This document shows, in pieces, positions 10,480 to 61,671 of a DNA stretch of 63,817 nucleotides. A program made the position numbers and the translations under genes. The notes beneath the pieces were generated by a model. The model ran no database searches, was not told the DNA's origin, and saw only the letters and a program-made list of their open reading frames with translations. Origin of the DNA: Vermamoeba vermiformis (lineage: Eukaryota); contig JBEWZL010000258.1 of the NCBI GenBank assembly GCA_045837725.1, positions 1-63,817 on the forward strand. The letters run 5' to 3'. The first letter of the stretch is position 1, and each line of letters starts with the position of its first letter.

Positions 10480-11154
10480 ATGATGAATACACGCGCGCAC
10501 CTTCGCAAAATTAACGAGCGAATTGAAGAGCTCGAATATGAGTTGGAAATTGCGTATCTGAAAATGCGCTGCAGCATCGGTTCGTATATTGCAAGTAAGT
10601 ATAATTTTTAGTTTGCAATTTCTATTACTTGTAGTTTAATTATTATTTATAATATTATTCGGGATTGATTGCAGTAAAAATTAACAACGTTTTTTTTTAC
10701 AAAATAATTTTTTGTAATTAAAATATAATATTTAAGGCGCCACAAGACGGCACGAATTCATACCAGCTTCCCACGACATTGGTCAAGAGTTGGCAAGAGC
10801 GAGAGAGCAGTTCCCTGACTGCAACTTGTAAGTAATGTACTTTTAAATAATTTTTCAATTTTTTAACTAACTCGAGCAGCAACTTGAATCATCCCGATGC
10901 GATCTACGCTCGCACGCTCTATTGCAGGGCTTCTCGTATGGAGCAGTACACCAGCATTCTATTGCTGGGCGAGAAGCTCAAACGAGATGCCATCATTCGG
11001 GACTACATCGAAGGTAAGTACTTAGTTTATTTTATCTTATTTTGTGAAAATTTTACTAATTGATTTGTTTTTAGCTCTCACCGGCCAGCTTGATGAATCC
11101 GTAGGACCTTTTGTTGACCTCGATGCGGAATTAGCCGCACGAGGCTTGAATTAA
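10480..11154 (+). CDS. Small multi-exon hypothetical protein
   Basis: MMNTRAHLRKINERIEELEYELE.. with GC-richer exons separated by AT-rich gtaagt..ag introns. Confidence 0.5.
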
Positions 11155-11186
11155 TCAATAATTCGGTACTTGTAATTGGCCGTAAG

Positions 11187-11880
11187 CCCCCCCCGTCCCC
11201 CTGGCGGACGGGGTCTTATTAAATAAATATACCCCCGTCCCCCTGGCGGACGGGTATCAACCAATTTTGTAATTTGTGGATTTCTGAGGCTGAACCTGAA
11301 AGGTTAGGTACTACTTTCCAACCTGACCTCAATGCGGAATCAGCCGCACGAGGTTGCTGATACTTGTAATTGGCTTTATGCCCCCCCCCCGTCCCCCCCT
11401 GGCGGACGGGGTCCTATTAAATAAATATACCCCCGTCCCCCTGGCGGACGGGTATCCATCAAGTATTTCAAGCCCAACATACCTGAGGCTGAACCACACA
11501 GGTCAGGTATAAAGTAAGTACCTAGTGAGGTTGAGGTTGTGCATTAGCATTGAGTATGTACCTGATGCTGAACCTATCAGGTTGAGGTATTTGCTACAAA
11601 CCTGATGCAGGAGGTAAAGGTACATGACAGCGATCCCGAGGTGGATACAGCACCCCCCGTCCGCCAGGCGGACGGGTCCTTATTAAATTAATATACCCCC
11701 GTCCCCCTGGTGGACGGGGTCCTATTAAATAAATATACCCCCGTCCGCCAGGCGGACGGGTATCCATCAATTTTATAACTGGGTATACCTCAGGCTGAAC
11801 CTGGCAGGTTAGGTACTATTTACTTTCCCAGTGTAGCATGGGTTGATAACGTGCCCCCGTCCACCTGGCGGACGGGGTCA
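11187..11880. repeat. Array of 8 hairpin palindromes ccccgtcc-N7-ggacggg(g) with AT-rich spacers
   Basis: Copies at about 11191, 11232, 11387, 11430, 11654, 11696, 11738 and 11854. Confidence 0.9.
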
Positions 11881-12001
11881 GTTATCAACTAAGGCACCAA
11901 TTTCCCAGTATACAGGCTACTCCAAACATCTTGTTTATTTAATGTCACATACATTGGCCATGGGTGGCGGCTGATTTGTACAAATGTTTGATTGGCCTCT
12001 G

Positions 12002-12063
12002 TGGCTGACTTGCCTCACACCCAACCGCAGCCCCACCAGCCCTAACCCTAAAGGGTATATAAT
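12002..12063 (+). repeat. 62-bp terminal-like motif (copy 2)
   Basis: Exact match to 15-76; directly abuts a 5'-truncated Nei-like gene. Confidence 0.9.
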
Positions 12064-12945
12064 CAATCAGAGTTTATTTAATGGAATTGGGGCGTACGTA
12101 TCTTCTGAAATATGCTTCTGGTTGCTTGAACTGAAAGGTATTTTAATTAAACCGGATTTGCGATCTGTCGAATAATTTATTAAGTACTAGGTGTTCGCCC
12201 TTGGACTAATTTTAGATCATTTTGCGGCCAATCTGCAGAAAACCTGGGCTGCTTGATTCGTATCATCCGCGTATATCTACAATTTATGGAAAAATACATA
12301 GCAACTCACGGCTCTGAATCCACATGCATCAACTACAATGAGTGGAAATGGCAAAACTTTCGTGCCGTATTTTTGCGAGTTTATAGACAACCAAGCGTAT
12401 ACCGATCTGGTCAACGAGTGAAGATTCAGAAATTCTCGTTCGGATTAACGAAAGCAGGCAGCCAAGGAATGAAAATAACTCGCTCTAAAGCTCAATGTTT
12501 TACTCCTGAACTCAGCGAGGATGAGATACCGCCAGCGAGTTGGTCAGAAAAGCGGGTGAATCTGATCGGCAGGAATTCCCTGGGTGTTGGTTGGTTCAGT
12601 TGGTTTGGCGCAGTGGATCGGAAAATTACTCTGGAAAGCGCCCAAAAAGACGTACGTAATAAGTAACTGTTACAGTATTCTTATGAAGTTAACTACTTGA
12701 AGGCGATCCAACTCCGACCAACTTCGAAAGATCTGCTTTTTGGTAAAGAAAAGTCTGAGGAATGCTACAGTAATTTCGACGACGATATGGAAAGCGAGGA
12801 AGATTGCGACTTGAGTACGGAAGAACAAGCCCAACGGAATGACAATAAGCCTGAACCAAAGGAACCGAAGAAAAGAGAATCGCAACGCAAGCGAATAATA
12901 AATCGCCTAAATAAAGAGATGGCTGAAATTGTCTCGCAAAAATAA
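12058..12945 (+). pseudogene. Second Fpg/Nei H2TH-like paralog, 5'-truncated
   Basis: INQSLFNGIGAYVSSE and NEWKWQNFRAVFLRVYRQPSV..R..LGVGWFSWFG align with the 629-1240 copy (NERRWLEFRSLFIRIYRQPSV..R..IGVGSFNWWG). Confidence 0.65.
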
Positions 12946-12951
12946 ATTTAT

Positions 12952-13930
12952 TTAATAACTTGAATCAGTGACAGAGTCAGACTCATATCCCCACGCCGAA
13001 GGAGAGTCACCAATAGTTACGCTGAACATACATGTTTGTGCCTCGCTATTTTGGAAGGTGTGGCTCGTAATAGCGGTCTGTTTGTAATTTGAATATTTAC
13101 TCCTCGTTGAACTTCGCTGAATTACAGCGTCACTACGTAATACTGGATACAGAGTTTGGTTCGCGTCTTCTTGAATTGATTGAGTTACGTTGTGGCTAAA
13201 TATTTGTTCGAAAAATACACCTTTTTCATAAAGCATTCTGCCGATCTGCCTTTGCTTTTCATTCATGAGACGAAAAGCCCTTTCGATATTATCTTCAACA
13301 TCGATGGACTCGATGGAGTAATCTTCTCTGGTTGCTGGCCTCACCTCGATCTGCAATCGTATTAGTATTAATGACAAGTATCGTTTGCAACAAATATTAC
13401 CTGAAATGCACCATTTGTGAGAACAACGTGATAAAACCTATCCAGGCTCGTTTCGAATAAGACCTGTCTATTCTACGGTCAGTAGTTACTATGGGTTAAT
13501 GAAAAGATCTTACCTCATTTTCTCCAGTTGCGCTCCTGGCCTCGTTTGCTTGGGTCGAGCGCTTTTTAATATTGAATTTACGACGCAAAGTCCAAACCAG
13601 TAGCCCTCACGAGTGCATTGACTAATGTTAACTCGAAGATCGGATATGTTCACGCCTGAAAATAGTTTAGTGCTAACATTTCATCGAAATAATATCAATA
13701 AATACTTACTTAAATTATTATATTGTTCTTTTGCAAGTTGCTTGATTTTAGAAAGACCGATCGACGTCAAATTTGATATTCCCAGTGGACTAATTAGCAA
13801 CTGGCAGGTTTTGACGTCAAACAATATTCTGTGCTCCTTAAAATATCTAACGGTGTTAAAATTGAGTTTTGATTAACCTACACTTACGTGTAGTCCTGAT
13901 CGAGTGACATGTCAAAATAATTTTACTCGT
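12952..13930 (-). CDS. Hypothetical 'GYWF' family protein, copy 2 (multi-exon; start uncertain)
   Basis: EHRILFD..GISNLTSIGLSKIKQLAK and GYWFGLCVVNSILKSARPK align with 9019-9982. Confidence 0.55.
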
Positions 13931-13972
13931 ATCCCGATGAATCTTTAATGAAATCAACGAATAGCAACACCC

Positions 13973-14382
13973 ATGCAACACGGCGACGAATCAAAGGAAA
14001 CTAATCCCGAACAAACACAAAGTGAAAGCAACTCAACCTCCAACGTCACAAAACAAATCGAATTGCTTGATTATTATAATAATATGTGTATTGATCGTGT
14101 AGCATTCAGCAGACTTGTTTAGTAAGTGAAATAATTGCGGCAATTATTGTGAGTTGTAAGATCTTACGCGCATCTCTAAATTTATTTTGCAGTGAAATTA
14201 CTCGTTCAGTTAAAGACGACACCCGCTGGAATGGCGATGCTCTATTAATTTTACACGTTATATCCGAGCAATTCCTTGTTGAGTTTTTCGAACTTTGTGG
14301 GATCAAGGCGACTACAGAAGATCGCGTTACGATTACCGCTGCAGATATAAAATCATTTATCAAAACACAGCAGTATTTGTAA
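13973..14382 (+). CDS. Second divergent H3-like histone-fold protein (start uncertain)
   Basis: LFCSEITRSVKDDTRWNGDALLILHVISEQFLVEFFE..RVTITAADI resembles H3 (DLRFQSSAV.ALQEA.EAYLV.LFE..RVTIMPKDI). Confidence 0.6.
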
Positions 14383-14754
14383 GCCTCTGATTTACATTAT
14401 ACACAAAATAAATTTGAGTACGATTTCTGGACATAGAGCTCGGTTGCCGTACTTGCACCTGACAAGAATACCACAATTTATATTTCGTGGACCAGCATCA
14501 TCTTCGTGCGCATCTACATTTTTCATTATCCCACACGCCACCACGTTAGCACAACAGCGCAACAACAGAGCAATTTCGTGAGATCGGCTTTTGCTCATGT
14601 AGTCGCATAATTGCTCGTTCAAATAAATGTAAGTTCATTAAACCGACTTGGAACATTTTTTTACGAACGGATTGACATCTTGAATCCGTTCAAACACGAC
14701 AGATCATTCATTTTAAATTTTAAAAAAAATCCCAAAGTATATCGTACTGTTAGC

Positions 14755-15062
14755 GATGCTGAGAGGGTCTCCAATGACCCGTTGGCAGAGTTATAATGGT
14801 ATGAATTTGAAGCGATCTTGCACGAAGTTTATCAAATTTTTATTCCGTTTAGATTTAAATGACAACCAAGTGTAATGCTAGTATCAATGCTGAGAGGGTC
14901 TCCAATGACCCGTTAGCGGAGTTATTAAGCGTGACACTTTGCGCTGTCTATCCGGATTTATCTGGCTGCTTTTCGAGCAGGCTTGAAGAGAGGGTCACCA
15001 ATGACCCGTCTAATAGCCCAACAGAGTCTAAGTCTTGCGGGGAGGGTCGCCAATGACCCGTC
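14755..15062. repeat. Four copies of palindrome gagggtc-N6-gacccgt
   Basis: Copies at about 14761, 14892, 14988 and 15041. Confidence 0.85.
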
Positions 15063-15179
15063 TGCATGATTGTGACCTGATCGCTTGAGTTGTGACAGAT
15101 TTGATCCGTTCTTTAATCAATTAATTTAATAAATATACGACAAGAGATTGCTGGTTGGATCTTACATGGTTCTTGATTT

Positions 15180-16290
15180 AAGGACTGCGATAATCTTCTT
15201 GTGCGCGGTGATTAGACCGTCCAGAAGTTGGACGGTCAGATGCTAGTTGCGAATTCGCCCAGATCTGGGAATTTGCAACAAGCAATGCCCTACAATAAAT
15301 CAATACGTATCGATGGTATTACCCGATGTGTACTTACTCCGTTTCAACGCTTCGACGCGTGTCGCCGGGTCACTCAATAGTGAAAATTGTTTAGCTCCGG
15401 ATTCAAATTTGAACAATACTAAATTATGTTATTCATATTTAAGTGCTGCTTTCATTTAATTGATCTATATTAGTTGTTTGTACTTACCTGTAGCGCGATC
15501 GATGCGCACCAACAACTTCTTTCCTGATCGGGATCCGCGACGGGTTATCTATGGACCCCAGTTCCACATCATTTTTCTACATAATAATTATTGTCAATAC
15601 ATTGTTGGAATAATTCTTAACAGGGACCACCTACTTTTAGAGTAATTGATGTTCTGTATTAAAACTTTGATGGATCGAGACAGGCCGAATCTCGATCTCA
15701 CTCATGCACTTCAAGGGTCGCTGCGACGCATAATAACCTGCAATCATGTTAGAGGTAGTACGCTAACCGTTTTTATACATACTTAGACTGCTAATCACTG
15801 CATTAACGGAAATTATAACACACCAGATCGCGCGTCACCGAATTCACTAATGTTTTCCTCAGACCCTTGTACTAACAAATAAACAATGTTAGAACTTCAA
15901 AACAACATATATAACTAATTGACTTACTTTTAGCTCGGTCCACGCAACGTTGCATAAACTCGATCAACGAGGGGCAGGGATGTCAGCGGTAAAAGCGAAG
16001 ATGTACTAATTCTAATAATATTACAGAGTTAGTAAGTATTAATATATTATAATAATAAGCATTAATTACTTACTAATTGACGGCTGCTAATTTTCTCGCT
16101 GAGTGTCTTTGTCACGGTCGCAATGGGATTCGTGACCGTTCGTTTCCAATACAAGGGACACATTGACTCATCCTGAGAAGAGGTTTGTTAGTAGTGACCG
16201 GTAATAATGTATTTATGGACTTATACGGACTAAGAGGACTTGCGACTGCGCAGTCGATCGTGCGCCGAGTTGAGGTCGTCTGAGAACACT
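15180..16290 (-). pseudogene. Degenerate multi-exon gene remnant of unknown function
   Basis: Regular gtaagt..ag intron pattern on the minus strand, but exons contain stop codons. Confidence 0.3.
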
Positions 16291-16439
16291 GCACTGACCA
16301 CGCGCAAGCACGTATGAACTACATTATATTGTATAATAAATAAACCGAGAACCAACAAAAAAGCGTAAATTACGAGCACTAGGCTCGATCTGATAATTTT
16401 GAGTTTAACTTGAAAATTTAAAATTGAATTTACAATAAA

Positions 16440-31540: not shown

Positions 31541-34500
31541 ATGCCCGAGCTGCCTGAAATCAAGCGCTATGCATATATGATTAATAAGAAATGCAAGGGT
31601 CTTGAATTCAATTCAGTCTCGTGCTCTTGGGCCAAATATCCTGCCTTGGTAGTCCCGTGGGGAAGGTACGTAATTAAATACACGCAATATTCGCTTTAAC
31701 GGACGCGAAAGTCCGTCGATCTGGATTTCAAATTCATTTAACCGTCATTAAATATCTACGCCCATTATTTTAAATACATTTGACCCCAAAAAAATAATAT
31801 AAATTATATTTAGCAAATTTACTATTTCTGCCGAAGCTAGAGGCAAGGAGTTAATGCTCACCTTAACAAATCCGAGTTCCGTCAGTCAAAAAATGACAGT
31901 TGTATTTACTCATGGTTTGGTAAGTTTATTGTGTATTTATTTTAATTATGGCACGCTTAAATTACGTGCCCAAACGTCAAATCCATTTCCAGGAAATGAC
32001 TGATCCGATCGAAATTTAGGTTGGCTCTTGGGAGTTTACTTCGAGCTCTAGCGTTTCTAAATACGCTCTCGTTCAGTTTACCAATGGTACCAACACGCTT
32101 AGGTGCGCAGTATTCGAGTTTTCTTTTTTGGTCTTTTTCTAACTCTCGATCAGCTACGTGGACGTGCAAAAGATGGGTGGCTACAATGTGGGTACATGGG
32201 GCAAAGATCGCGGACCAGATCCTGTAAACGTAAGCCTTCGCCGTCTGATTCTATTCTATCATATGTAAATTTCCTTTCTGATCCATTATTTCAGGAGCAC
32301 GAGGCCTTCTGTAAAAATATTATGGACTCCATCAAATACGTGGTGTTCAACAAAGATATTTGCGAAGTACTGCTGGAACAGTCTTATTTCAATGGTAGGA
32401 CCAATTGCATCTCTCGTCTGTGTCAACCTTCGTGCCTATCTAATACTTTCCAAATTAGGCATTGGCAATTATCTCCGAGCAGAAATTCTTCACCGCGCCA
32501 ACATTAATCCGTTTACCAAAGCACGTGATGTTTTTAAGTTCACGAAGCTGGACCAAGGCTTCGACAACATCGATCAGAACAGCGATCGCGGCCTCATCTT
32601 ACTTTATTTGTGCAAAGCTATTCCGTTAGAAGTATTGGAGAAAGGACTCAACAAATATGGCAATGATCAGGAGAAGGCTGCATTCGAGGCCTGGTTGACG
32701 TATGTTCGATGATGAAATTTCTTTGATGACACGTGTTGACACTTGTGAAGGGTCTACAACAAAGGAGACAGCAAAAAAGACAAAAAAGGCCGCACAATTC
32801 ACTACACCAACTCGCAAATGGCTGGTGTCGCCAAAGTATCACTGTACAAGCCTGCGTCACGCACTGCTGAGGAAGCACTCGCACGCTTCGAAGGTGATAG
32901 CATTCCTTCGAGCACATCTACTGCCACGGCAGCACCAGCTACAAGCACCGCAGCGACATCAAGCTTTACATTTGGCACTAGCTCGAATAGCAACACGAAC
33001 AGCTTCACGTTCGTCAACACCGCTTCCAAGTTTGGTGATAGCTGGAAGCAAAACACACCGAAACCAGTTCAAATGTACGTACCAATCCATGCTACTCATT
33101 CATAACTAATACTGTTATGTGTCCCTTAGTTCTATTGACGTCTCAAAAATCGATCGTATTTGCGACTTGTCACGTTCTGCTGAAGCTTCATTAGTGCCGG
33201 GTTATTCTTGCCTCCTTGAACACGTAAGGAATTCAAATGCTATTTAAGACTTGCTAACCACATTTGTAGCCCGAAGAGAACCAATTCCACTTGTTACAAA
33301 TCATTGCTGTGAGCAACGGAGCCGTGTTTTGGCAACGATTCGGACCAAGTAAGCAGCACTCACTAGGAAATTTATCATCGAGCCTAATCTAATTATTCGC
33401 GGACAGAGACGTCTCTCGGTGTGCAACTTCGTCAAGGCCCGTCAGACAAGAATCACGCCATTGCACAGTTTGAAGACATTTTCAAAGAGAAGACTGGCCG
33501 CCCTTGGGAAGAACGTGCGTTTGCAGTGCGTCAGCCAGGCAAATACGAGCTCAAGGAGTACGACATGACCACTAGCGCCAAGTCATTTTCAATCCCAAGC
33601 ACACAATCAGCGGAGGTTGGTGGCATGGACCGAGCTGAATTTGGCTCACTCGATCCAATGGCCAAGCTGCTCGTCATGTTGGCCAGCATGGGTCGCAAGG
33701 GCCTGTTGACCACCGAACAGAAATCACACTTGAAGTACAAGATCCTCAACGAACAATCACCGTTGTTGTACAATGCTTTGGAGGCCTATGAACGAGACAA
33801 CAACGAGGCTGAACTCGCTGACACATTTGCAAGAGTGTTGGCCTTCGAGAAGGGAGAACGACTTCACGACCAATTCACGCCCGCACAGCCCGTGCCTTGG
33901 TCCTCGCAGTTCGGATCTGACTCCGACACATTCCAAGGAGTTGACAAGACTGCACCCGCTTGGCCTAAATTCGCTCCGCCCGTTCAATCATCTTCCAGCG
34001 GCTTGACTTCAACACTAACAGACCCATCGTGGCGAGCACTTTTGGAACCCGAATTCTCCAAACCGTACTTCAAGAAGCTGGAGAAGTTCGTCGAAAAGCA
34101 ATACTCGTCCAAGGAAGTATTCCCGCCCAAGGACTTGATTTTCAACGCGTTCAATTTGTGTCCATTTGACAAGATCAAAGTAGTCATTCTCGGTCAAGAT
34201 CCGTATCACGACAACGGTCAAGCTCACGGCCTCTGTTTCAGTGTCATGCGCGGCGTTCCCGTGCCCCCCTCACTGAAAAACATTTACAAGTACGTTTTCA
34301 CTTTGATTTGAATTAAGTGCTCATTGTGTCCTTTGCAGGGAACTCAAGTCCGATGTCGGTTTTGAACCACCAGAGCACGGCAACTTGGAGAGCTGGGCCA
34401 AGCAAGGAGTGCTGTTGCTGAACACCGTGTTGACTGTTGAGGCTCACAAAGCTAACTCGCACAAGGACCAAGGCTGGGAGACCGTAAGTGACTCTTCGAT

Positions 34501-34779
34501 AAAGCCAATATGGTGCTAACCAGAGAATGACAGTTCACGGACGAAGTTATCCGTCAGATTGGCTTGAAGAAGAAAAACGTCGTGTTCTTGTTGTGGGGCA
34601 CGCCGGCGCACAAGAAAGAAAAGTTGTTGAAGATTGGCAATCATCATATTTTGAAGACTGCGCATCCCTCACCGCTCAGCGCGCACGCTGGATTCATTGG
34701 TTGCAAACACTTCTCGATGACGAACACTTTCTTGAAACAACAGGGCTTTGAACCTATTGATTGGCAATTGCCGCAGTAA
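31541..34779 (+). CDS. UNG: NEIL1-like glycosylase - WGR domain - uracil-DNA glycosylase fusion
   Basis: [35 protein letters not shown]; then [15 protein letters not shown]; then GQDPYH, PPSL, GVLLLN, HPSPLS. Splice phases checked by hand from NEIL1 into UNG with no stop. Confidence 0.85.
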
Positions 34780-45813: not shown

Positions 45814-46721
45814 TTAATCGACTTCCATCGAGGGTTGAATAGATGTCGACTTGCGACACTTCGGACATCTGAATGAAGAGCTGTTGATGTCCTCATTCTG
45901 AACGCGCAAATACGAAGATAAGCACTCGGTGTGGAACACGTGACCGCATTGCAACACGCTAGTGCTGTGGTCTTCGCCGAGAACGCAATCATCATGCATA
46001 ATTCGTTGCATTTCACAAACGTGCTGGTGAGAGCCTTCGTGTGCCGGGTGTTGCTCCTGTGACGTGGCGGGAGCTGGTTGTTGCTGAACGACAGGCGGAA
46101 TTTCGACCTTTTGCTCGGGAATGTTACGTGAAGCCATTCTCTTTTTTCGCTCAGCCTCGAGCTCTGGATCTTCGACCTCTAATTCGTAGCGGCAAGTAGG
46201 GCAAGTGTTGTGTTGCTCGAGCCAAGGCACGATGCAGTCTTTGTGGTAGAGATGACCGCAAGGCAAGTTAGCCACGTTCTCGCCCTCGCTAAACTCGTCT
46301 TTGCAAACGGCGCATTCAGCTTTGTCTTCGACGTGCTTGGCCTGAATCTGGATCATTGGCAAATTTTCAACGACTTTTTTGGCGGTAGGTGGAGGGCCTT
46401 GGGGCTGATGTTGTTGGAATAATTGGTTAAGTAATTGATCGAACGAAGTCACGCCAGGCATTCTAAAAAGAATAAGAATTGTCAATTTCGGTCCGATCGA
46501 AAAAAATTGAATTTTCAAACTTACCCTCCATTTGGAACGAAGAACTGTTGGGGCATTGGGATACCGAAGAAAGGAAAATTAGGTATCGCACTAGCAGGTG
46601 CAGCTCCTTGTTGCTGGCCAGCCTGAGCAGGAATGAAAACTGGCGCGAAGTGGAACTCGATCCGAGTGACCGTAATCGGAATGCCTTGAAAACTTGGTTG
46701 TTGAGGGGTCGATGATGCCAT
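45814..46721 (-). CDS. RNF115/RNF126-like RING-H2 E3 ligase with a second RING-like domain
   Basis: CAVCKDEF..LPCGHLYHKDCIVPWLEQHNTCPTCR; second motif CGHVFHTECL..CPKCR. Confidence 0.85.
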
Positions 46722-49234: not shown

Positions 49235-49881
49235 ACCACGCGAGGCTCCATCGACCAAGGAGTCACGCAAATAGTAAGTTAACTGGGCAGAGAAAATTGA
49301 TATTTCTTGCCTTTGTTAACTTATAATAAGGCATACGCCGTTGAAGGCATCATAGACAAAACAAACAAAAATTGCAAAAGACAATAACCAACAAAGAAGC
49401 AAAAACGAAAAGACAGGCAAAAAATCTGTCGGCGAAATTAACTCTATTTATTTGTGTCGTTCGAAAGTACGATAGCAAACCGATGTAAATTAGAAACGGA
49501 TTGTAAATAAATCTGCTGCTGATTATCCGAACTTGGTGGGCACAACCTTCCTAATCCAACTCGAGATGCGACCGCATTTAGAAAATCAAAATACCCACAT
49601 AATAATTTCAAAAAATTTTAATATAATATAAGGCATGCATATTAGATAAAACGCGCTGTTTCGGCCAGGTAACTTATTTCAGTATTCTCTGATCTCAAGT
49701 CCTGTAACAATTCGAACGTAATAGCAATTTGATTAATAACAATATCAATATTATTATCATCGAATTTATCTTGCTCACACGTTCCTCAAATTTTGCGAGT
49801 GACATTCTAATTTTTATTTGTTTTAAACAGGTCTATTGAGATAGAATGAAGCGATAAGCAATCACACAGTTCTTCTTAATA

Positions 49882-52800
49882 ATGTCACGTAAAAAGGGAG
49901 CGAACTGGAACCTGACTAAAGGCGAGAAAAAGCAGCTGTCTCCACTAAAAGGAAAAGACAACGTCCACGTCCGATTGGACAAAATCCAACCCCAAAAAGG
50001 TGTTAGACAAACTGGCATTAATAGAGCTTGGAAATTAGAGAAGGAGTTGGTCGAGAAAACAGGTAAGATCTTGATCTTTTCAATTCTTTTGGATTATTAT
50101 TCTTTATAATAATTAATTTCGTCTTCGGTCATGCAATTAAATAATAATATAATAATATATCATATTTATGCAATCAAGCAAACGAATGGTTGTATTCTTT
50201 GTCGGATTCAATTTCGCTAAAGTCATTCAGGCCGAGGAACTCGCAACTGGACGAAGAAGCAAGTTAAAGAATTGCAAACAAAAGGCAAAGTATCCGGTTT
50301 TAAAGGGCATCACATAGTAAATGTCAAAAGCAATGCCGATCTGGCTGGAGATCCTCGCAATATTGTCTTTGTCTCGAAGAAAGAGCACGAACTAGTTCAC
50401 GGCAAAAACTTCAGAAACGACACGCAGGGTCGTGGCATCGATAGGAAGGCGATGATAAAGCAGCACGAAAGCACCGGTATAAAAAGACCTGTTGGTGAGA
50501 AGATAGCCGAGGCTGAAGCACGTGCACTGCAGCGTGTCAAATTACGACCGGAACAAGCACAACAACTCACGCAAAAGGTTGGAGACTTGGGTGCGCGTCT
50601 AAAACCTGGACTTGAAAAGGCGCAGAAGTTGGCAAAGTTTGCAGGAATAGCTGAGGACGTGAAAGAGTTTTGGGATGCAGAGGATAAGTAAGCACACTTT
50701 TTTTGTCTAACAGTAGATCTAATACTCAACAGAATAATGGCGGGAGCCAAAATTATCGGCAAGAGAGCTGGAGCGCGAGTTGGTGCTGTAATCGGAGGAA
50801 CAGTAGGAGCGCCTTTTGGCGGTGTAGGAGCGCCTATTGGCGCAGCAGCTGGCTATATTGGAGGTACGCGCAATTGTTCCCTGTGGCCACATTCGACTCA
50901 TTGTTTAATCAGGCGAATACGCTGGCGAGTACTTGGCCGAGAAAGGAGTAAATTTTGTCCGCAAGGTGAAGAACAAAGTGATGCAAGTCATTGGAGACGA
51001 AGCCCAAGGACCGCCACAAGAGGACAAACCCCTCGAGTTGGAGGTTGTTAAAAAAGTCGTTGTTTATTACTCGAGCGACGACGAGATAGCCTTGCCAGCA
51101 GCTGCATTTGATGACGAGTTTTCCGACGAGGCAAGTAATTGATAACCTGATTGTTATAGGCATTGTTCTGAGTGTTTTGATAGGACGTTCCACCTCCAAA
51201 GAAGGCGCCTCTGCCTCTGCCAGCAAAACCAAAGCAACCCAAAGAACCAGAGGTTGAGGAGGTTGAGGATGACGTTGCGCTCTCGGCTGAAGAAGACGTC
51301 GAAGACATTGAAGTCGAGATGGTAGAGGAGGACGCCGTTCTTGTCAACCAAGGCCAAGAAGAGATTGGGGAGGAGTTGACAGAAGAGGATGTCGAGGGTG
51401 TTAAGGCAATATTCAGCGAAGATCTCGAGCGTGATTTGTTCGATGTTGCCAACTTCGTAGTTGATAACTTTTTGCCGGACAACGACACAAAGAAGGTCGT
51501 GCAAGGTAGGGTTTAAATCTTACAAAGGGTTGGTGCGGACACTAATGGAGCTGTTAGGTGCGCTTGATTGCTATGCATTCGCCCGTGGTTACAAAGACAT
51601 CACAGATCCGCTGGCAGTAGCCGGAGCGCTTGTAAATTATTTGCCTCCAGAGCTTCAAAAGATTGCAAGCCCCGTGCTTAAGGGTGTACAAGCGGCCAAG
51701 ACAATGGCTGAAATGGCCGACAAGTTGCAAAACGGACTTGACGCCATTCAGCTTGCAGATGTTACCAACGTGCTCGGACTCGTTGCTTTGATCCCTGGCA
51801 TTCCTCCTGAAGTATCGGCTGTTATTGGTGTCCTCTCTGCAGCTGCTAAATTAGCTTCGCTCCTCGCAGCTGGAACTGCGCCGATTCTTCCAGTTGCACT
51901 CGCTGTGGCTAGTCTTCTTTTGGCTTTGCACAAGATGTTCGACCTATTTTCGGGTCTGGATCTTGGAGGCGGAGGAGGTGACGGCGATGGTGACGGCGAC
52001 GGCGACGGGGGTGACGATGATGGAGATGATGGTGACCAAGATCCTTCTGATGCGCAACCAGATGATGGTCAGCCTGACCCCACAGCGCAACCAGGTTTTG
52101 GCAACGCTCCGGGCAATGCTCCAGGCTATGGTCCTGGTGATGGGCAAGGAGAAGCTGCGGTTCAACAGCCTCCGCAAGGTCCAAACCGTCCGAATGCAAA
52201 TGAGCCTAGAAACCAACCGCCGAATAAGCAACAAGATAAGCAGGAGCAGAATCGAAACCAACCACAACAGTCTAAGGATAATCCGCCCTTGAACGATCGA
52301 AAAGCCAACCAAGACGGACAACAAAACCAAGCAAAACCCGAACAATCTCCCCAACATGATGATCCGTCTGAAAAGCCTGATGATGCAGGTCAGGAGCTTA
52401 GCGAAGACAACGCCCAAAACGAGCTTGAAAGAGAGCCCCGAGGAGGCGAGAAACAGCGCGATTTACCTCGCCGAAATATTGACCAGGAGAAGAACCTGCA
52501 CCAAAAGGAACAACCTGCCGGTAAACCTCAGCTCAAGAACGATTCCGAAGAGTTTGGTGAAGGCGAAGATATGGACCTTGCGGGCGATTCCGTTGATATG
52601 TCAGACGGCGAAGGAGAGTTCAGCAGTTCGGACGAGGACCTTGCAGGAGAACCTAAAGAGCAATTAGAAGAGCTGACAGGAGACTATGGCGGCTTTGAAG
52701 AGGCGCTAGAGGAGCGCAAAGGAGACTACGACGGCTCTGAAAATGGTTTGGAAGACATCGACGGATCCGAGTTGGCACCAATTGATGCCGCGGAGTTGGA

Positions 52801-55800
52801 CGAAGAACTGCTGCCCACATCTGACCACAAGAGCCAGCAAAAGCAATCTAAAAATAGCAAAGTGACTTCGGATTATGAAAATGTGGACGCAGATGGCGAA
52901 GGCAGTGGAGACGAGGATGGTTCATCCAGTGGTCTGGCTCTAAGCGATTTTGATGGTGAAGAATTCGATCTTGAGCCGTTCTTGACGAAAGGAGAAAAGC
53001 GCAAAGCGAAGGCCGAAATGAACCATGGCGTTAAGAGCGATGGCAGTGGCAGTGAAGAGGCTGGTCATGGCAGTGACCTTGATGAAAACAATGACGAGGC
53101 TGATTTGGGATCTGAAGAGGGAGATGGCTACAACATCGAAGACACTATAGAGGCACCTGAAGGCGCTCAAATGGAGGTGGACAATCCCACAGAGTTTGCG
53201 GGGCACACGGGAGGTGAAACTGACGATGCCACGGGCGATAACAGTTATGAAAGCGAAGGCGAGGATGGAGACTATGATTCATTCTCTGAAGACTTGGCGA
53301 ATGAACTTGAGGCAGATTTCACCGAAGAAGAGGTTGCTGGGGCTAAAGAGCGAATCAAAGAAGCCAAAGAAGGCGTATCATCTAACGCGACTGTTTGGGC
53401 CAAGATCGATGCCTTGTGCCAATTCATCGAAGAAGTTGACTACGTGTCAGCAATTCTAAATGATGATACGGCCTTTGCGGCAGCACAAAAGCAGTTGCTA
53501 TTAGCATATACGCACTACAATGCTCAACGCAACGAATGGCTGCAACGCGAGCGCGTACAAAGAAGAGAAGCTCCAAAGGTGAAAGAACTTACGTCTGACA
53601 ACGACAAAACTGAAGAGTCTGAGAAAAGCGATAGGTCCGATGAAGACTCCATGTCGGAGATCCTCGAAGCTGCAGTTAATCTGGTAAGTTTAATTCACCT
53701 AAAACAGTTGAATTCTAATGTTGATCAGATGGATGAAAGTGATGTCGAAGAGCTCGATGACTTCAATGAAGAAGATCTCAGTGACTTCGATGACACATTC
53801 AGCTGTGCTGAGCACGAGCAGGTTGACGATGAAAATCGCAATATTGAGCATGTGGGCAAGATTGTAGGACATCGTACGATGGATGACGCACCAGAAAGGG
53901 GAAAGGCAATCTATCGCCCGTCAGCGTCGAAGTTACACCACAAAAAATACGATCGAGAAGAAGAGCCCGAGGGCGTAGTTTTCAAAGAGAACTATGACGA
54001 GAACCAGCACGAGTTCATGAAGCAAGTCGCTGAACGGGCTTTCTACCAGGCGCAACAAACCGAAGCTACTGACAAGAATAGTATTTCAACTACTATTGTC
54101 AACAAAGAGAAGCTGTTCAAACAGCTAGTCAGTGGTGATGTTCCATCCACTCTGAAAGCCCTGTTAGCTGACGAGCAAGCGCAGTCGTTGGCACAGTTGA
54201 CCAAAGGCAACGCCTCCTTTTCTCGAACGGTGCTTGAACTACTTAGCGATGAAATTTCAGAAGTGAAGCAAATCGAGCTCTTGATCAAGTTTTGGAAGCC
54301 CCTCGCAAAGCTCTTTGTTATCAGCGATGGCCTCTTCCCTCAGCAATTCTCAGAATTTCAGCCGTTCATGAACAAGCTCACCGTGGCGCTCGCATCTACT
54401 GAGTACCAACAATTTGTGCGAATATTGCCTGATTTGGAAGCTCTTGTAGAACAGGCTAGCGTGCTGAAGTTTGATCTCGACAAACAATCTGATGAGAAGA
54501 AGAACATTGTTGAAAAGGACAATCGCGATGTTGCAGAACGAATACTGTGCAAGGGAATGGCCGCCAGCGACGAAGTTGCAACAGTCAATTGCTTGGAGTC
54601 GCCGCTAGATTTCCAGGGCATTCATTACAGCGACGACATTAGTCATATTTTGCCGATTCACGCGTTACAATTGGATAATCCCGATCTCGAGATCATGTTT
54701 TGGCGAGATTTCACCGAGAAGAGATTAGTCACTTACGAACATGATGGCGGAGTAATTGACGACTCCAACGATGACTACGCGCAGATGCCACGAGCAAAAG
54801 AGACTCTGAACTATTTGATCAATGAGCGAGCACCTTTTGTCGTGTGCTTGAATACGCCGGTCAAAACGGAGAGGAAAGAAGCATTGGCCGTCAAACTATT
54901 GGTCTTAAATGTCATGCGCCAATGTCTGATCGAGCAACGAACTGCCTTTGTTTTTGGTTTCACGTCAAAAGACAATCCAAACGACGTTCAAAAGCATACA
55001 TTGACGCCAAGTTTTGACGGCCTATTAGCACTGTTCGAGATTTGCCAAGCAACATTTGACAGAACTGAAGCTTTCCACGAAGTCTATGCTTGGACAACAT
55101 GCGAGCATGCACCTTTGCACAGCGGTGCTTCATACTTGAAGGAAATGGAGAGCAAAGGACAGTCGTTGTTAGCTGAAGTCATCGTCACATCCGACCGCAT
55201 CACTTCGCTGTCTTGGCCGTATGCGCTATTGCCGTCCCATGGAAGGTTGCTAGTTCACTTGCTAGAGCCAAATACCATCAACTACTGCTCAGCTGTCCTC
55301 GAGAATGATACCTTCAATGTGGTGGTGGAGCCTAAAGTATTGGCAGACCTGCCTATCGTTGGGTTTATCGATAGCAAGTCCAAACACGCACAAGGTTTGG
55401 ATCATTACCGCGCCGAAGAATTGGAAGGAAAGGACGTGCACCACGTGTTCTGGGATGGCAGCAAGACCGGCGAAAGTGCATCTGTGTGTCTGGCATTTGA
55501 TCACAAATGCACTTTCGAATTCAACGCGGGCATCAAATTGAATCAGTTCACTGTGAAAGGAGCTTCGCCATTTGTCAGCGCATTGGGCCAGCCGAAGACC
55601 ATTGCCACCGTTGAGAAGTCTCTAGTGGCATTGACGACCTTCGGAAATAGCGACGAAATTTCGATCTCGTCCAACCTCCTCGTACGTCCGACCTCAATGG
55701 TGTCACTGCCAACTGTTAATTTCTGTTGCTCATTGATTCATCACGTGAACTTTGATGAGCTATCAGCGCATCCTATTAACTCGCCAGTTGTTAAAGAGCA

Positions 55801-56233
55801 CATGGAGTTGTGGTTGAAGGCAGACGCAGGTGTCAGCAAACCTGAGTGGCACTGGCAAGATCAATCTGCCAAGCAGCGAGATGTCAATGATATCACAGAG
55901 GATAACAGTCAATTGCCTGCGTTAAAATACAACGAAGCAACGCAACAGAGATACCTGCAGTTTACTTCAAACACTCATTACGCCGTGAATGAGCTACCAG
56001 AGCAGCTAGTAGATGTGTTCGTCGTGCACGAAAAGCAAGGTTTGCCAGTGACACTTGGCCGAGAAGTCGTGCCATTCAACAGCTTGTCGGTATTTCCAAC
56101 GACGAAAGTGAACTGCTTGAACATACGAGGCGCATTTATTAACGTTTACGAAGTACTGGTGCTGCGACAAGGCAGTCCAGCTGAATGTGTTGAAGTCGTG
56201 CTGAAGTATTTGAAAAAGAAGTACAATGTTTAG
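49882..56233 (+). CDS. Giant (~1,900 aa) Tox-GHH nuclease - glycine zipper - acidic linker - ViaA-like VWA protein with LamG-like C-terminus
   Basis: RAWKLEKELV..GTRNW..GKVSGFKGHH..LAGDPRNIVF..EH..H..NFRN; GARVGAVIGGTVG..GAAAGYIGG; GIHYSDDISHILP..FWRDFTEKRLVTYE..PFVVCLNT; splice phases continuous (one GC-AG intron at ~51131). Confidence 0.75.
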
Positions 56234-56255
56234 ATTTATGAAAATAAACTCTGAC

Positions 56256-58953
56256 TTAGCATCTTTTGTTCGTCTTCAAATCGTTATCAGCGATTGGTTG
56301 AAGCTCCAATCGATGAAAGGCGTTGAATTCTGCGGCTTTGGTTGTGAAGAGTTGCGGATCTCGCAAAAGAATGGTTGCAGCTTCACTAGCGAGAGGAGAT
56401 GAAGTCATATTCTTCATAACATCCAAATGATTGTTCTTAGGGTTGATCAAGTGATTCTTCAAATCGATTAAGAACTGCTTAAGCTTTGATGCCAAATCGA
56501 TTCCTTGAGGTGGATCCAAGCAGTAAATAACTCCATCGGCACTAACCTGTGGATGGAAGATAGGAGATAGTACACGTGCCGAGATAATCGAAGTCAAGGG
56601 ATCGATGTGTACGGCGACTTTGTGCCAGTATTGTTGCTGCTTGATGCCTACGAGGAGGTAGTTGCCAATCAACGTCGATTGAGCCGTCACGAAATTTCTC
56701 ACAACAACGTCATTTGGAAGGAATCCTGCTAGTTGAATCCAGCCCTTAGTGCTAAATTGAGATTCGTTAACGAAAATTTTGCCAGTGCTGTCATGCTTCA
56801 CTGGATGCGGAGCTTGAGGAATTCTTGGAACTCTTTGCAATCCGTCGCAGATTCTTTTCATGTCTTCGCACTCTTGTGGCGATATCCAAAAGTGGTTATT
56901 GCAGTTTTGAATGACAGTGTCTATGTGTTCAGGGAAGAGTTGCAGTGTAGTTGACAGGGCTTGCAAAAAGATGTCATAAATGTCATCAATTTGCGTATGA
57001 CGGTTCCACGTTAAATGTTTGAGAATGGCACAGTCTGAAAGACATATGGGTCTGCGTACTTCACTCGTGTGGGCAACCATTTGAATTACTTGACGGATCT
57101 TGATCCAACGACGCGGCGAGACATAGATCTTCTTCTTGTCAAGCTGAGTCATCATATTATGGAGCAAGAAGAATACGGCGTCGTTTAATTCTTTTGTCTG
57201 ACCTTCTTGGCGAATGACCGTTAGAGCTTCAGGAGTGAATAAAAACGCCTCCGGGATCTCGACATTATCTGCAAATAAATGAGTCAGATTAGAGTATGGC
57301 TAATAAAGAGGTATAGTCTTACTTGAAATAACATTTAACGGATTGATCAGGTCCCTAAAACCGGATCCACCCACATCCGGAACAAGAATCGGTCGTACAA
57401 GGCTTGAAGTTCTCCAGTATTTGCAGGATACTCGTTGCTAGCAGCGACGGCGATGAGTAGAGGAATATCGTACCGAGCAGTTCCGTTGTCGAATTTTCTT
57501 TCGTTGAGAATGGTCAGCATGGAGTTCAGAATTGCGCTGTTGGCTTTGAAAATTTCGTCTAAAAATGCAACGCGAGCTTCAGGCAAGTAACCTTTGGTGA
57601 TTCTATGGTGTCGGTCGAGTTTCAGATCCTGGATCGAAAGCGGTCCAAAAAGTTCTTCGGGCAAAGTGAACTTGGTGAGCAATCTCGAGAACATTTTTTC
57701 GTTTCGTGAAATCAGAGAAGTGATTCGTGAACAAAGTTGACTTTTGGCGACGCCAGGTGGACCCAACAAAAGACTATGTTCTCCGCATAACAAACTTAGA
57801 AGCATTAGTGAGCAGTGTTGTTCTCGTTCAACCAGGCCAGCTCTAAATTTGTTCAATATGAACTTCAAATTTCCAATAATGTTACTCGCGCGTTCGTTAG
57901 GCGAAGAGGAATTGGGGACGAGTGTCGCGGGGGAGTTAGTTGCGTTGACCAATCGTTGACCAGAGTTTGCGAGGCTTCCTGGCGAGTCCTTGGTTTTCTT
58001 CTCATTGGTCACTGGGTTCGTGCTATTGGTTGAAACGTTCGTGTTGTTTGGCGGATCCTGATCCTGATCTTGATCCGACTGAGTTGCCTTTGCTTGTGCT
58101 CGTTGAAGCGCTAAAAACTTTTGCTGAATCTTGACGAGGATTTTCCGTTGACCAATGGTGAAGTTCATTTCGGCGAAGTCTTTCTCCGTCAGCCGTACGA
58201 ACGACCAACCGGATGTGATACTGTTATCCGCTAGTGTTTGCAACCATTTGAAGACGTCTTCTTTAGATATTGATCCGTCCTTAACAAGCTTCGACGAGAA
58301 GTGCGAAAAATACTTTTTGAAGAGCACGTCTTGGGAGGGGCTTTTGTTTTGTTTGAGCGAGCTTTTTTGCTTATCTGGGGCAGAAGAGGACTTCGGTTTA
58401 CGATCACGAGCATAGACGAGAATATAAACGTCTGTTTCATACTCGTCAAAGTCGATAAAGGATTCGTCAACAGCAATGATTTGAAAACCTTCTTGATCTC
58501 TGTGACACTATAGGGATAAAATAAATATAAAGGCAAAGAGGCTATTTTTCATCGATTTACTTACCACTAGGCACGAAAGAACGAATTTTTGGGTTTGCTT
58601 TTGCGAATCCAAAAGCGATAAATTAATTTCAAACGCTGTAACGTTTCGTTGTTTCTGACCGCGAGGAAATCTGTCGACATGAACTACAAGAATATCCACC
58701 GTGCTATCTAAAGCCCTAAATACAATCAAAGAATTAAAAACGTATTCTTTTGGTTGCGGATTTACGCCTGTACTAACCCTAATTTCTCGTTAATCGCTGT
58801 AGTAATTTGATATTCTTTATTTTTATCCAAATTGACTTTGACATTTCGGATTTTATCAGAGTCGCCCGCTAAAGAATGAACAGATTGCAAGGGATCAACT
58901 TTCTGAGCGACGTTTTCCTGCAACTTCGAGATTAATGTTGTTGCTAATGACAT
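56256..58953 (-). CDS. ravA: RavA-like MoxR AAA+ ATPase with N-terminal SAM-like and C-terminal UBC/E2-like domains; apparent frameshift at ~57357
   Basis: LVERE..GEHSLLLGPPGVAKS, LLTKFTLPEELFGPLS, GYLP..FLDEIFKANSAILNSML.ILNER, ASNE, ALYDRF, SPRRW; IFHPQVSADGVIYCLD..PLASEAA. Confidence 0.85.
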
Positions 58954-59085
58954 GATTAAGCAATAGAATAATACTACAAATCAAAAGGGACTTCTCTTTC
59001 CTAAAAATTGGCGTTTTTCGTCCACAAAAACAAATTCAATTCTTTCTTCGCATTCAACACTTTTTACTGCTTGAGAGCCCACACA

Positions 59086-59295
59086 ATGGAAAAGGAAGAT
59101 AAAAAAGGCTCCAAAAAGCCAAAGAAAACCATCCTGGAAAGGGTCCAAAATTGGTTCTTTGGCGAATCTATTGATTTTCCAGCTTTCATTCGCCAAGTAG
59201 ATTCTCTTTTGGCCAAAAATGATGTAGAACCCCAAGAAGTATTAGACACGTTCAAAGAATACGACGACAAAAACAAGCAGGGAAAGTTGTATTAA
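59086..59295 (+). CDS. 5' portion of a gene (EF-hand-like), probably interrupted by the downstream transposon
   Basis: MEKEDKK..EVLDTFKEYDDKNKQGK ends just before the putative element end. Confidence 0.35.
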   Translation: MEKEDKKGSKKPKKTILERVQNWFFGESIDFPAFIRQVDSLLAKNDVEPQEVLDTFKEYDDKNKQGKLY

Positions 59296-59333
59296 ATAAA
59301 TTGAGAGGTATCTCATTTTTTATTTGTTTGACT

Positions 59334-61671
59334 TCAATCGTCATATCGCTTGTTTGGTTTTTTGTTTCGCTTTGTTCTTCCATAGTCAGTTGTGTTTATA
59401 TTTCGGTATTCACGTGCAATCCACTCAGTACTTGTCACTGGCTGTATCAACACTGGGGCATCATAGTCATTTTCATCTAATTCATCTTCATCTGGATAAG
59501 TCTCTGGTATGACAGCATCAACATCAGGGTGCACTGCCTCGTGCACCACTTTCACTGAGGTTGTGGACTGGTCATGGTGACGCTGCTGTGGTGGCAAGAA
59601 CATCAATTCATAATTTGTTGTTGGGCTGTCAAACTCAATATCTAGTAGATCAATTGCAGTTGTGTCGTCTTCTGCAGGCTGATCGGCATTGAATAATTCT
59701 TCAAAGTATTGTTGCTGTTCCTCAGATAGTTTGTCGTAAGTTTTTCTGGTCGCTTCAATCACTTTGTCGTCAATTGGCTTTGGTTCAATCTTGATTGGTT
59801 TGTCCGCTGGAATATTGTGAAGGATAACAATATCGTCACCATCTGCACCCCCTTTCCACTCCTCATCTGTTGCCGTGTAATTGCGCCAATGCATTACAAC
59901 GCTTCCTTGTGCATTGACAGTGAATCGAAAAACATGGGGCTTTGTGTGCCCAGTGAGCTTTGGTAGATATGGGGCAAGCCAGCCACGATAATCATAGATA
60001 GTTTTTACCAATCGCACTTCTGGCGGCGAATTGTAGCAACTCTTAATGTACTCTTTGACATCTTCATCGTCGCCCGTAAGGAGATTATGTGACTTGAGTC
60101 CAATAGCCACTGGCACGTTCTCTTGGTCAATGTCTGTATGAGTGTGTCCTTGAGGAAGGCAAATGAAATAGATGGTATTGGTAAACTTTTTGAGCAGCAA
60201 AACCGCAAAAAAGCCAAAAACGTAGGTATTTTTGTTCTCTCGCCAGCAGTTGTCGCTTTGAAATACCATTGTTGGTGGCAGAGCCTGACCATCTCTGATT
60301 TGCGAAACTATGTGAATGGCTAGTAGATTGATGCTGTAATTGCTGTCGTGACTATACTGTTGTGCAATTGAGACAAACAGAGTACGTCGCTTGGTGTTGT
60401 GGTTGATAAGTCCGGATATTTGCAATCGCAAACGTGCAAGACGGAGCCAAGATTTTGGGAACTGAGACCAGGCAATGTGCGGAATCAAAATCCCTGAATA
60501 GCCATCCCATATCATTTGCCAAATCAAAAAGCTAGCGATTAGCTTTCGGTTAGAATATGTCAGCCGTTCTAACTTTTGCAATGCGTTGTGCTTTGCCACT
60601 TGCTTTTGAACGTTGGTAACTTGAGTTTGGGACACTGCAGCAGCTTGTTGCAACTTCCTACGCAAGATTAGCTTCACTGTGAGTATGGAAGAAACTTACA
60701 TTCTGAGCTCCACACATTCGTCACATTTGCCCAACCGCGTAGTCTTTGGGAATTTGATCCATGCGTACTGAGAAATTGTCGTATAGAAAGTACTCAGCGA
60801 TGCTATGCGATGCGTTTCCTCAAATTCTGAAGCATATTGAGCGTAAAGAAGCTTTTTGTTAAGCGCAATAGGGCAGTGCCATTGATCACTATCAGGTTGT
60901 TCATCGAAAAATATGGACATCAAGCTGAGCACAAAACTTTGCACCGACTGTAATTGAGCTGATGAATACAATCTGAGGGCATTACCATGTGGAATGACAG
61001 AGCAACTAGACTCTTGTTTGATTTGTTGTAGCAGAGGTGCAAGCTTGTTTGTACTGATTCCAAGCAGTTTGATGAAAGCGCGTTGACAGACTTCAAGACC
61101 GTCAAGCTTGTAACAAATCGTCGGAGGCTTGTCACTTCCTTGATCAACTTTCATCGCATTAAGGGAATCAAGTAGCCATCTTGACCTGCCATCGTGTCAG
61201 GCATTTAGCAGAAACATGAGGTACGTACCTTTCGCGCTCAGATTTCTCAGAGTATGGCAGTCGTAAGCGTTCAATCTTCTGGACATTAAATTGCCTCATA
61301 CACAGTTGTTTGCAGCACTTGTATTGCAACAGCTTTTCATTGAAATTACATAGCTTAAGCTGCTTTCGTGATGGTGACGCGACGCGCAACTTTCGAGTCT
61401 CGGATTTGTAAGTGCGTTTTGGGGAGGGGTCATAGATTGAGGATACTCGTCTATTAATATCTATTATGTGTAAGCAATGCAGCTAATTGTAGAACGATAC
61501 GTACCGTCAAAAATTTTATTGCTATCAACCTCGTAAATCCACGACCGCCGATCATCGCTCGTGCTTGTTGTCTCATCTTCATCTACATATATTAATGAAA
61601 TGCAGATAGATATAAATGCCCATACCCTTATTGAAGACTTTTGTTGTGTCAAAATCGCAGATCCAGTCCAT
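59334..61671 (-). CDS. DDD-type transposase (Sola-like), multi-exon, apparently intact
   Basis: CCKQLC, VCQRAFIKLLGIS, KCDEC, IWDG, QSDNCWRENKN, GHTHTDIDQ, HVFRF. Confidence 0.75.

Follow-up and report, generated by a model that had tools for sequence, protein, structure and literature searches.

A eukaryotic RavA/ViaA-like gene pair with an E2-like domain on the ATPase, and its probably broken copy in Vermamoeba vermiformis

It has been proposed that MoxR-type AAA+ ATPases and their vWA partners serve bacterial conflict systems as switches that set thresholds; some of these bacterial pairs are linked to separate ubiquitin-like conjugation genes. We analyzed a related locus in a 63,817-nucleotide (nt) contig of Vermamoeba vermiformis (JBEWZL010000258.1; hereafter the window), where a minus-strand gene of four exons and eukaryotic type (58953-56256) combines a MoxR/RavA-type ATPase with a domain resembling ubiquitin-conjugating (UBC, E2) enzymes and converges on a plus-strand gene for a ViaA-like vWA protein. 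The locus as a whole is probably a eukaryotic RavA/ViaA-like module whose ATPase is fused to an E2-like domain and whose copy in the window is broken.

Three described groups come closest to this arrangement. The FtsH-type MoxR-vWA ternary systems are presented in section 21 of PMC7159879 with a full Ubl-E1-E2-RING-JAB set that includes a separate Ubl-E2 protein. As described there, they are the nearest counterpart, with a MoxR-vWA pair functionally tied to ubiquitin-like conjugation; however, their E2 lies on the Ubl-fused protein, whereas the E2-like domain of the window lies on MoxR itself and resembles canonical eukaryotic E2s, and no adjacent Ubl, E1, or JAB gene was recognized. For the second group, the bpMoxR clade, section 22 of the same source gives Walker A as GXXXTAKS, and part of the clade is reported to have a vWA partner without MIDAS (metal ion-dependent adhesion site) aspartates (PMC7159879). 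In common with the clade in that description, the window gene has PF20030 as its best Pfam family, an Ala before the Lys in GPPGVAKS, and a vWA partner without MIDAS aspartates, and the bacterial pair in Marinomonas lies in a defence island. In contrast to it, no beta-propeller or third component was recognized in the window, the host is a eukaryote, and no bacterial member of the analyzed set has the E2-like domain.

The third group, RavA-ViaA of Enterobacteria, is resembled in that the core and lid match the RavA model, the neighbor matches the ViaA model, and the two genes are adjacent; bacterial relatives are of similar size (~510 and ~524 amino acids, aa), with cores 51-61% identical. The window genes differ in scoring far below the equivalog cut-offs (187 vs. 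681 and 57 vs. 500 bits), in being eukaryotic with introns, and in lying tail to tail rather than co-directionally. In addition, the C-terminal arm of the ATPase is replaced by the E2-like domain, an N-terminal extension is added, and the partner has 1590 residues and a degenerate MIDAS.

Gene model, ATPase, and vWA partner

We compared the region 49500-59500 with transcript contigs of a closely related organism (X4), whose pieces are 95-99% alike to the window, and with three raw RNA runs (X21-X23) from two samples labelled as the species of the probable source. All three introns of the MoxR-E2 gene are spliced joints in the X4 contigs. The joints 58714->58777 (a 62-nt intron, 58777-58716), 58507->58565 (57 nt), and, in record 5, 57268->57323 (54 nt, with 255 letters on the shorter side) each remove a stretch bounded by CT..AC on the plus strand, that is, GT..AG on the gene strand. 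The window DNA is eukaryotic, with short GT..AG introns and RNA reads that have a poly(A) end at 49531. The features of the two genes are as follows.

58778-58953, minus strand: exon A, 176 nt, start codon ATG at 58953-58951, phase-2 end before a GTTAGT donor, joint seen in X4
58565-58715, minus strand: exon 0, 151 nt, joints 58714->58777 and 58507->58565 in X4 record 6
57323-58507, minus strand: exon 1, with a SAM-like stretch (~58100-58327), a low-complexity linker, and the bpMoxR/RavA-like AAA+ core
57763-57740, minus strand: Walker A, GPPGVAKS, in the AAA+ core
57559-57554, minus strand: Walker B, D-E, in the AAA+ core
57359/57360, minus strand: 16-nt deletion in comparison with the X4 transcript (16 letters inserted behind 57359 in record 5)
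57269-57322, minus strand: core-lid intron, canonical, 54 nt, GTAAGA...GCAG, X4 record 5
56895-57268, minus strand: exon 2, first part, AAA lid and helical linker
56256-56894, minus strand: exon 2, second part, E2/UBC-like domain, stop codon 56258-56256
~56328-56588, minus strand: stretch best matching E2s
56555-56547, minus strand: HPQ in place of HPN, in the E2-like domain
56522-56520, minus strand: codon of the Cys that aligns with the catalytic Cys of E2s, preceded by one additional residue
51461-56233, plus strand: ViaA-like vWA partner gene, open reading frame (ORF) 51461-56230, 1590 aa, convergent neighbor, homologous stretch at ~54293-55336

The initial annotation had read this gene as one SAM-RavA-UBC protein. 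All the peptides that it quoted do lie on the minus strand, but they belong to two ORFs in different frames (57347-58507 and 56256-57299), and joining the core to the lid requires both the intron 57322-57269 and 16 nt that the window lacks. A first gene model with the core-lid intron at 57361-57300 was ruled out by the X4 joint and the same 16-nt difference.

The assignment to MoxR is strong. Exon 1 matched Pfam bpMoxR (PF20030; E 1e-51, 175.4 bits, threshold 27) and AAA_5 (E 1e-23, 84.2 bits, threshold 22), and exon 2 matched AAA_lid_8 (E 3.2e-11, 43.3 bits, threshold 22.8). Walker A and FLDEIFKANSAILN are intact, and 36 invariant columns are common to the window and 11 bacterial proteins. 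The narrower designation as RavA, which had also been proposed, fares less well: the NCBIfam RavA model (NF010054) matched the core (E 5.8e-55) and the lid (E 1.3e-4) with 187.3 bits against an equivalog cut-off of 681, and it aligned at positions 16-178 and 201-295 of 498 only. On these alignments, the name RavA denotes a resemblance and no more.

Scanning one genome for each prokaryote species gave 584 candidate stretches, 557 of them confirmed, from which 80 loci were kept, mostly in Gamma- and Betaproteobacteria and Myxococcota; identity over the 187-aa core was 51-61%. A profile of 63 bacterial MoxRs covered its positions 9-183 in the exon-1 ORF (E 5e-86) and 199-322 in the exon-2 ORF (E 5e-17). 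The match does not extend past position 322 (of 498), the point at which the E2-like part starts, suggesting that the E2-like domain replaces the bacterial C-terminal arm. In bacterial RavA the arm after the lid is the LARA-bearing region, and the NCBIfam model found no match to this arm in the window gene.

In the bacterial relatives the vWA gene directly follows MoxR, as in Marinomonas arenicola, where a 510-aa MoxR precedes an overlapping 524-aa vWA gene. That locus (11090-16333 of the analyzed stretch, L001), the closest bacterial MoxR-vWA pair, continues with HEPN (RiboL-PSP), Mrr-type endonuclease, and type I restriction R-subunit genes and is thus a defence island. A motif-bearing MoxR ORF was present at 78 of the 80 bacterial loci and a downstream ORF in range at 46 of the 78; 38 of these ORFs (440-640 aa) made up a partner profile. 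Searched against 805 six-frame ORFs of the window, the profile found only the vWA ORF with significance (E 1.1e-23, residues 1006-1200; next best 0.4). The same ORF matched the NCBIfam ViaA model (E 2.2e-15; 57 bits, below the cut-off of 500) and, in BLASTP, an ORF of an Archangium locus (26% over 361 aa, E 3e-15), whereas Pfam and PDB searches with all 1590 aa gave no match. Its N-terminal region is long, hydrophobic, and acidic, it has ~300 extra residues at the C terminus, and LNTPVKT replaces the DxSxS of the MIDAS. The match to a ViaA-like partner suggests that a bacterial two-gene module was acquired. By sequence likeness, both genes of the bacterial RavA/ViaA-like pair are present, now in tail-to-tail orientation.

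The E2-like domain and its family

The initial annotation had assigned the C-terminal part of the gene to the UBC fold with an intact catalytic Cys and HPQ for HPN. The residues are as claimed, and the register of the match is that of E2s. UQ_con (PF00179) matched the window with E 0.033 (14.2 bits; the domain alone, E 0.079 and 13.0 bits) and the 67% identical homologue P0023 with E 0.0016 (18.5 bits), all below the threshold of 27; the two matches share their register, profile positions 65-138 of 140. For a third family member, P0002, Pfam gave no UQ_con match. A profile of the three family sequences matched 154 PDB sequences at E<=10, the best being 4gpr_A (E 0.0024); among the 60 matches listed, 58 are named as E2 or UBC and the other two, named L3A2-1, match in the UBE2L3 register. 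The Cys of GVIYCLD stands opposite the catalytic Cys of G.I-CLD in 4gpr_A and 5v0r_A once a single inserted residue is allowed for. In the Atlas language-model search, UQ_con clusters came out on top (0.92, 0.91, and 0.90), and 23 of the 30 matches fell in that set, whereas a single-sequence PDB search of the domain returned 0 matches at E<=10.

Compared with canonical eukaryotic E2s (PF00179; PDB chains of UBE2N, UBE2S, and Rad6), the domain has the H-P, the Gly, the Cys-Leu-Asp, the crossover-helix region, and the P..SEAA helix in register. It differs from them in scoring below the Pfam threshold, in having Gln for Asn and an extra residue before the Cys, in an undetectable N-terminal half, in its fusion behind an AAA+ ATPase, and in lacking the Trp that canonical E2s have after the active site. 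Pfam, the PDB profile, and the Atlas search converge on a single register, and the sequence matches, below threshold but consistent, point to a divergent eukaryote-type UBC (E2)-like domain.

The family is represented in public data by four unnamed fragments (P0001, P0002, P0023, and P0024). An exhaustive HMMER search of exon 2 against 1.84 billion representatives gave 22 matches at E<=0.001, of which only P0001 (98% identical) covers the C-terminal domain. The other 21 match only in the lid region; one of them, P0002, has an E2-like tail that was seen on alignment. A word-indexed search (3 matches among 7280 candidates) found P0023, which is 58% identical to the window in the E2-like domain and keeps the surroundings GV[IV]YCL. 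The window, P0001, and P0023 all have the aligned Cys. P0024 was the sole match for the N-terminal half. The MoxR-E2 architecture amounts to three unnamed fragment clusters among 5.8 billion proteins. Among longer forms (609-2000 aa) in the same set, 0 of 8000 scored candidates passed, which by the account of the tool itself is weak evidence, and a scan of metagenome contigs matched 150 pattern stretches, none of which was confirmed. Being so rare, the family would have been missed by ordinary annotation. In keeping with the impression that the fusion was undescribed, no description of it was found in the literature searched, exclusive of the supplementary architecture tables of PMC7159879. 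The fusion is seen in one spliced X4 contig and in the continuous exon-2 ORF of that related organism, alongside the homologues P0023 and P0024. Judged from these sequences, the fusion of a MoxR/RavA-type ATPase with an E2-like domain that keeps its Cys is a real architecture.

Upstream of the ATPase core, the claim of a SAM domain found no backing. The SAM-like region, searched as pieces of 136 and 76 aa, matched 0 Pfam families at E<=10, no SAM (PF00536/PF07647) was found in P0024, and PDB searches of the stretch returned no SAM protein. The Atlas search gave three SAM-clan clusters at 0.83-0.86, below the bar of 0.9, and one of the 10 best matches shares a family. Over 78 columns, the SAM-like pieces of the window and P0024 are 71% identical, and the flanking linker is less conserved; the stretch is likely a real small domain. 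Further upstream, exon A, exon 0, and the start of exon 1 make up an N-terminal region of ~150 aa in which Pfam recognized no family. By eye, these first ~150 residues (58565-58953 and 58373-58507, minus strand) resemble the C-terminal half of a ubiquitin-specific protease (USP; LVVHVDRF ... FVLSCLVCH ... DVYILVYAR) without the Cys box; searches of the separate pieces gave no support for this likeness to known USP-peptidase motifs.

The 16-nt break and the alternative readings

X4 record 5 spans 56791-58325 across the core-lid intron and carries 16 nt that are absent from the window. Without them, the exon-1 frame of the window reads ...RMWVDPVLGT and ends at a stop codon (TGA, 57349-57347), ahead of the lid and the E2-like domain. 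With the 16 nt restored, 57359-57324 translates as FRDLINPLNVIS up to the canonical donor, and in our reading the restored frame would meet the GTAAGA donor in phase 1 and join exon 2 in frame. The related sequences agree with the restored form at this site: P0024, an exon-1 ORF of different origin that shares 265 of 371 residues (71%) with the window, has VTSFAGFRELIDPLNVIT after RMWVDP, the bacterial relatives have the consensus PVSxxGFxxLL, and segment 184-198 of the 63-sequence MoxR profile is absent from both window ORFs. The AAA lid of the window is therefore not on the same polypeptide as the core, being separated from it by the stop and a frame change, whereas the two are joined in the X4 transcript contig. 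The predicted window product has ~495 codons and ends after the AAA core, compared with 846 (our count) in the intact form.

Each of the runs X21-X23 gave depth in only 3 of 30 bins, with at most ~0.3 anywhere over the MoxR-E2 gene, in contrast to the gene end at 49500-49833, which is covered. A few X23 reads also lie inside the vWA gene (54344-54375, plus strand) with both loose ends unmatched to the window; they may be a chimeric or repeat-derived fragment. Between the window and X4, 20 of 25 classified coding differences (drawn from 40 listed of 110) were synonymous, and in the E2-like part 9 were synonymous vs. 2 non-synonymous, a pattern of purifying selection on the intact form. Because the exon-2 ORF is open and the differences are mostly synonymous, the break is recent, allelic, or an assembly error. 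A recent null allele or a pseudogene is the probable status of the window copy, which we consider rather likely to be non-functional.

In the reading that we prefer, a bacterial RavA/ViaA-like MoxR-vWA pair (bpMoxR in Pfam) would have been acquired by a eukaryote, where it gained introns and its genes came into tail-to-tail orientation. Within the ATPase gene, the divergent eukaryote-type UBC-like domain would have taken the place of the bacterial C-terminal arm that follows the lid, and the protein would have been extended at its N terminus by a region containing a small conserved helical domain. The intact form appears to be transcribed and spliced in the closely related organism, whereas the window copy would have lost 16 nt at the core-lid junction, so that its frame ends ahead of the lid and the E2-like domain. 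In intact copies, the AAA+ ring and the vWA adaptor would most likely couple ATP-driven client remodelling to the ubiquitin system, with ring-borne E2-like domains that either carry ubiquitin on the Cys or, as pseudo-E2s, only bind ubiquitin-system partners. We infer the hexameric ring, the cooperation with the vWA protein, and the ubiquitin link from these likenesses.

Several observations weigh against this reading. For the broken copy, the RNA silence in three runs from two samples may stem from the conditions and not from a dead gene, the exon-2 ORF downstream of the break is wholly open, and the deletion is seen only against the contigs of another organism, so that it may be an error of assembly or be accompanied by a second, intact allele. 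For the E2-like domain, P0002 (24% identical in the domain) is without a Cys at the aligned place, and the HPN motif is incomplete, with H and P invariant in three family members but Q, H, or F at the Asn position; the Trp expected after the active site is absent. All E2 matches fall below curated thresholds and cover only the C-terminal UBC half, the N-terminal half being undetected. Structure prediction, proposed initially as a check, was informative for one part of exon 2 only: AlphaFold (18-row alignment) gave a predicted local distance difference test score (pLDDT) of 80-93 over the lid and helical linker but a low-confidence 30-50 over the E2-like part, and the 212-aa domain modelled alone (3 rows) had a low-confidence mean of 35.2.

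Among the alternatives, the one that survives best concerns the function of the domain in intact copies. It may be a UEV-like pseudo-E2 that docks ubiquitin, E1/E3, or another partner on the AAA+ ring, standing in for the partner-docking C-terminal arm of bacterial RavA. Pseudo-E2s of the UEV type include Mms2/Uev1 and the UEV domain of TSG101, and P0002 resembles them in keeping an E2-like scaffold (H-P, D-G, and the P..EA helix motif) without the aligned Cys. The variable catalytic Asn position and the exact replacement of the bacterial region after the lid also speak for this view. However, the clade of the window keeps the Cys and, at 58% domain identity with P0023, its surroundings as well, the only Cys-less sequence known is a fragment, and no UEV family was matched in any search. 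We regard this alternative as plausible but tentative. For the family as a whole, a non-catalytic pseudo-E2 role is likewise a tentative suggestion, and we rate true thioester chemistry as slightly less likely.

The frameshift could instead be unreal or harmless, as an assembly error, as one of two alleles, or through an intron that bypasses it, leaving the gene functional. An alternative GT..AG intron at 57361-57300 (62 nt, phase 0 to phase 0) is present and would keep the frame, the downstream ORF is wholly open and 98% identical to P0001, and selection appears to have been strong until recently. However, the fraction of sampled words that recur in separately built contigs of the probable source sample is 1.00, splicing at this site is not supported by any RNA read of the source species, and the bypass intron would remove the conserved GFxxLL segment. 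Based on these results, we consider a working window gene unlikely.

The reading proposed initially, an intact SAM-RavA-UBC enzyme in the window that is charged with ubiquitin on the retained Cys and works as an E2, is improbable. The conserved Cys, the purifying selection on the domain, and the open exon-2 ORF favor it, but the stop at 57349-57347 precedes the lid and E2-like part unless the 16 nt are restored, there are almost no RNA reads, and the SAM call found no support in sequence searches. The lost Asn, the one-residue insertion before the Cys, and the Cys-less P0002 also argue against it. Least probable of all is a chance likeness, in which an unrelated fold happens to show the HP...C...EAA pattern: the subthreshold matches, the undetected N-terminal UBC half, the empty single-sequence PDB search, and the failure of AlphaFold to produce a UBC fold would allow it, but independent UQ_con matches of two family members agree in register, the 60 PDB profile matches listed are all E2s, and the Atlas search ranks UQ_con clusters first.

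If the preferred reading of a captured MoxR-vWA module is right and the intact form is active, it would constitute a new class of E2, ring-borne and ATPase-coupled, and a clear case of a bacterial defence-type module rebuilt with ubiquitin parts of the host; the window copy would show the MoxR-E2 gene being lost. A bolder extension is that intact orthologues form a RavA-like hexamer with six competent E2 domains, which together with the ViaA-like adaptor would be an ATP-gated ubiquitin-conjugating machine. A bacterial threshold or conflict module would then have been captured by a eukaryote and wired into ubiquitin signalling, possibly in immunity. We hold this extension to be unlikely on present sequence evidence.

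Other features of the window

PADLOC assigned 0 families across five proteins, and Rfam and tRNA scans of the window were empty. Directly upstream of the MoxR-E2 gene lies a DUF7869 ORF (59334-60695 and 60696-61196, minus strand; Pfam 1.8e-47), which we take to be transposase-like; its position suggests that the surroundings of the gene are rich in mobile elements. A RING-finger ORF (45814-46578, minus strand; zf-RING_2, 5e-22, with two RING/PHD-like stretches) lies ~10 kb from the E2-like gene.

Just upstream of the vWA gene, a gene with a Tox-GHH domain of HNH/EndoVII nuclease toxins (49882-50691, plus strand; Pfam 2.9e-12) has a 168-nt GT..AG intron in the X4 contigs (joint 50059->50228). 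Between these two genes, a small ORF pair (50737-51142, plus strand) is split by a 49-nt intron (joint 50861->50911), and its first part is glycine-rich with, by eye, a glycine-zipper-like hydrophobic stretch.

ORFs at 33388-34776 (plus strand) matched ORFs of two Paenibacillus loci and were set aside as an ordinary uracil-DNA glycosylase outside the MoxR-vWA module. The gene extends over three frames, through introns or shifts, is 56% identical to the Paenibacillus glycosylase ORFs, and has a weak WGR match in its N-terminal part (E 0.0037).

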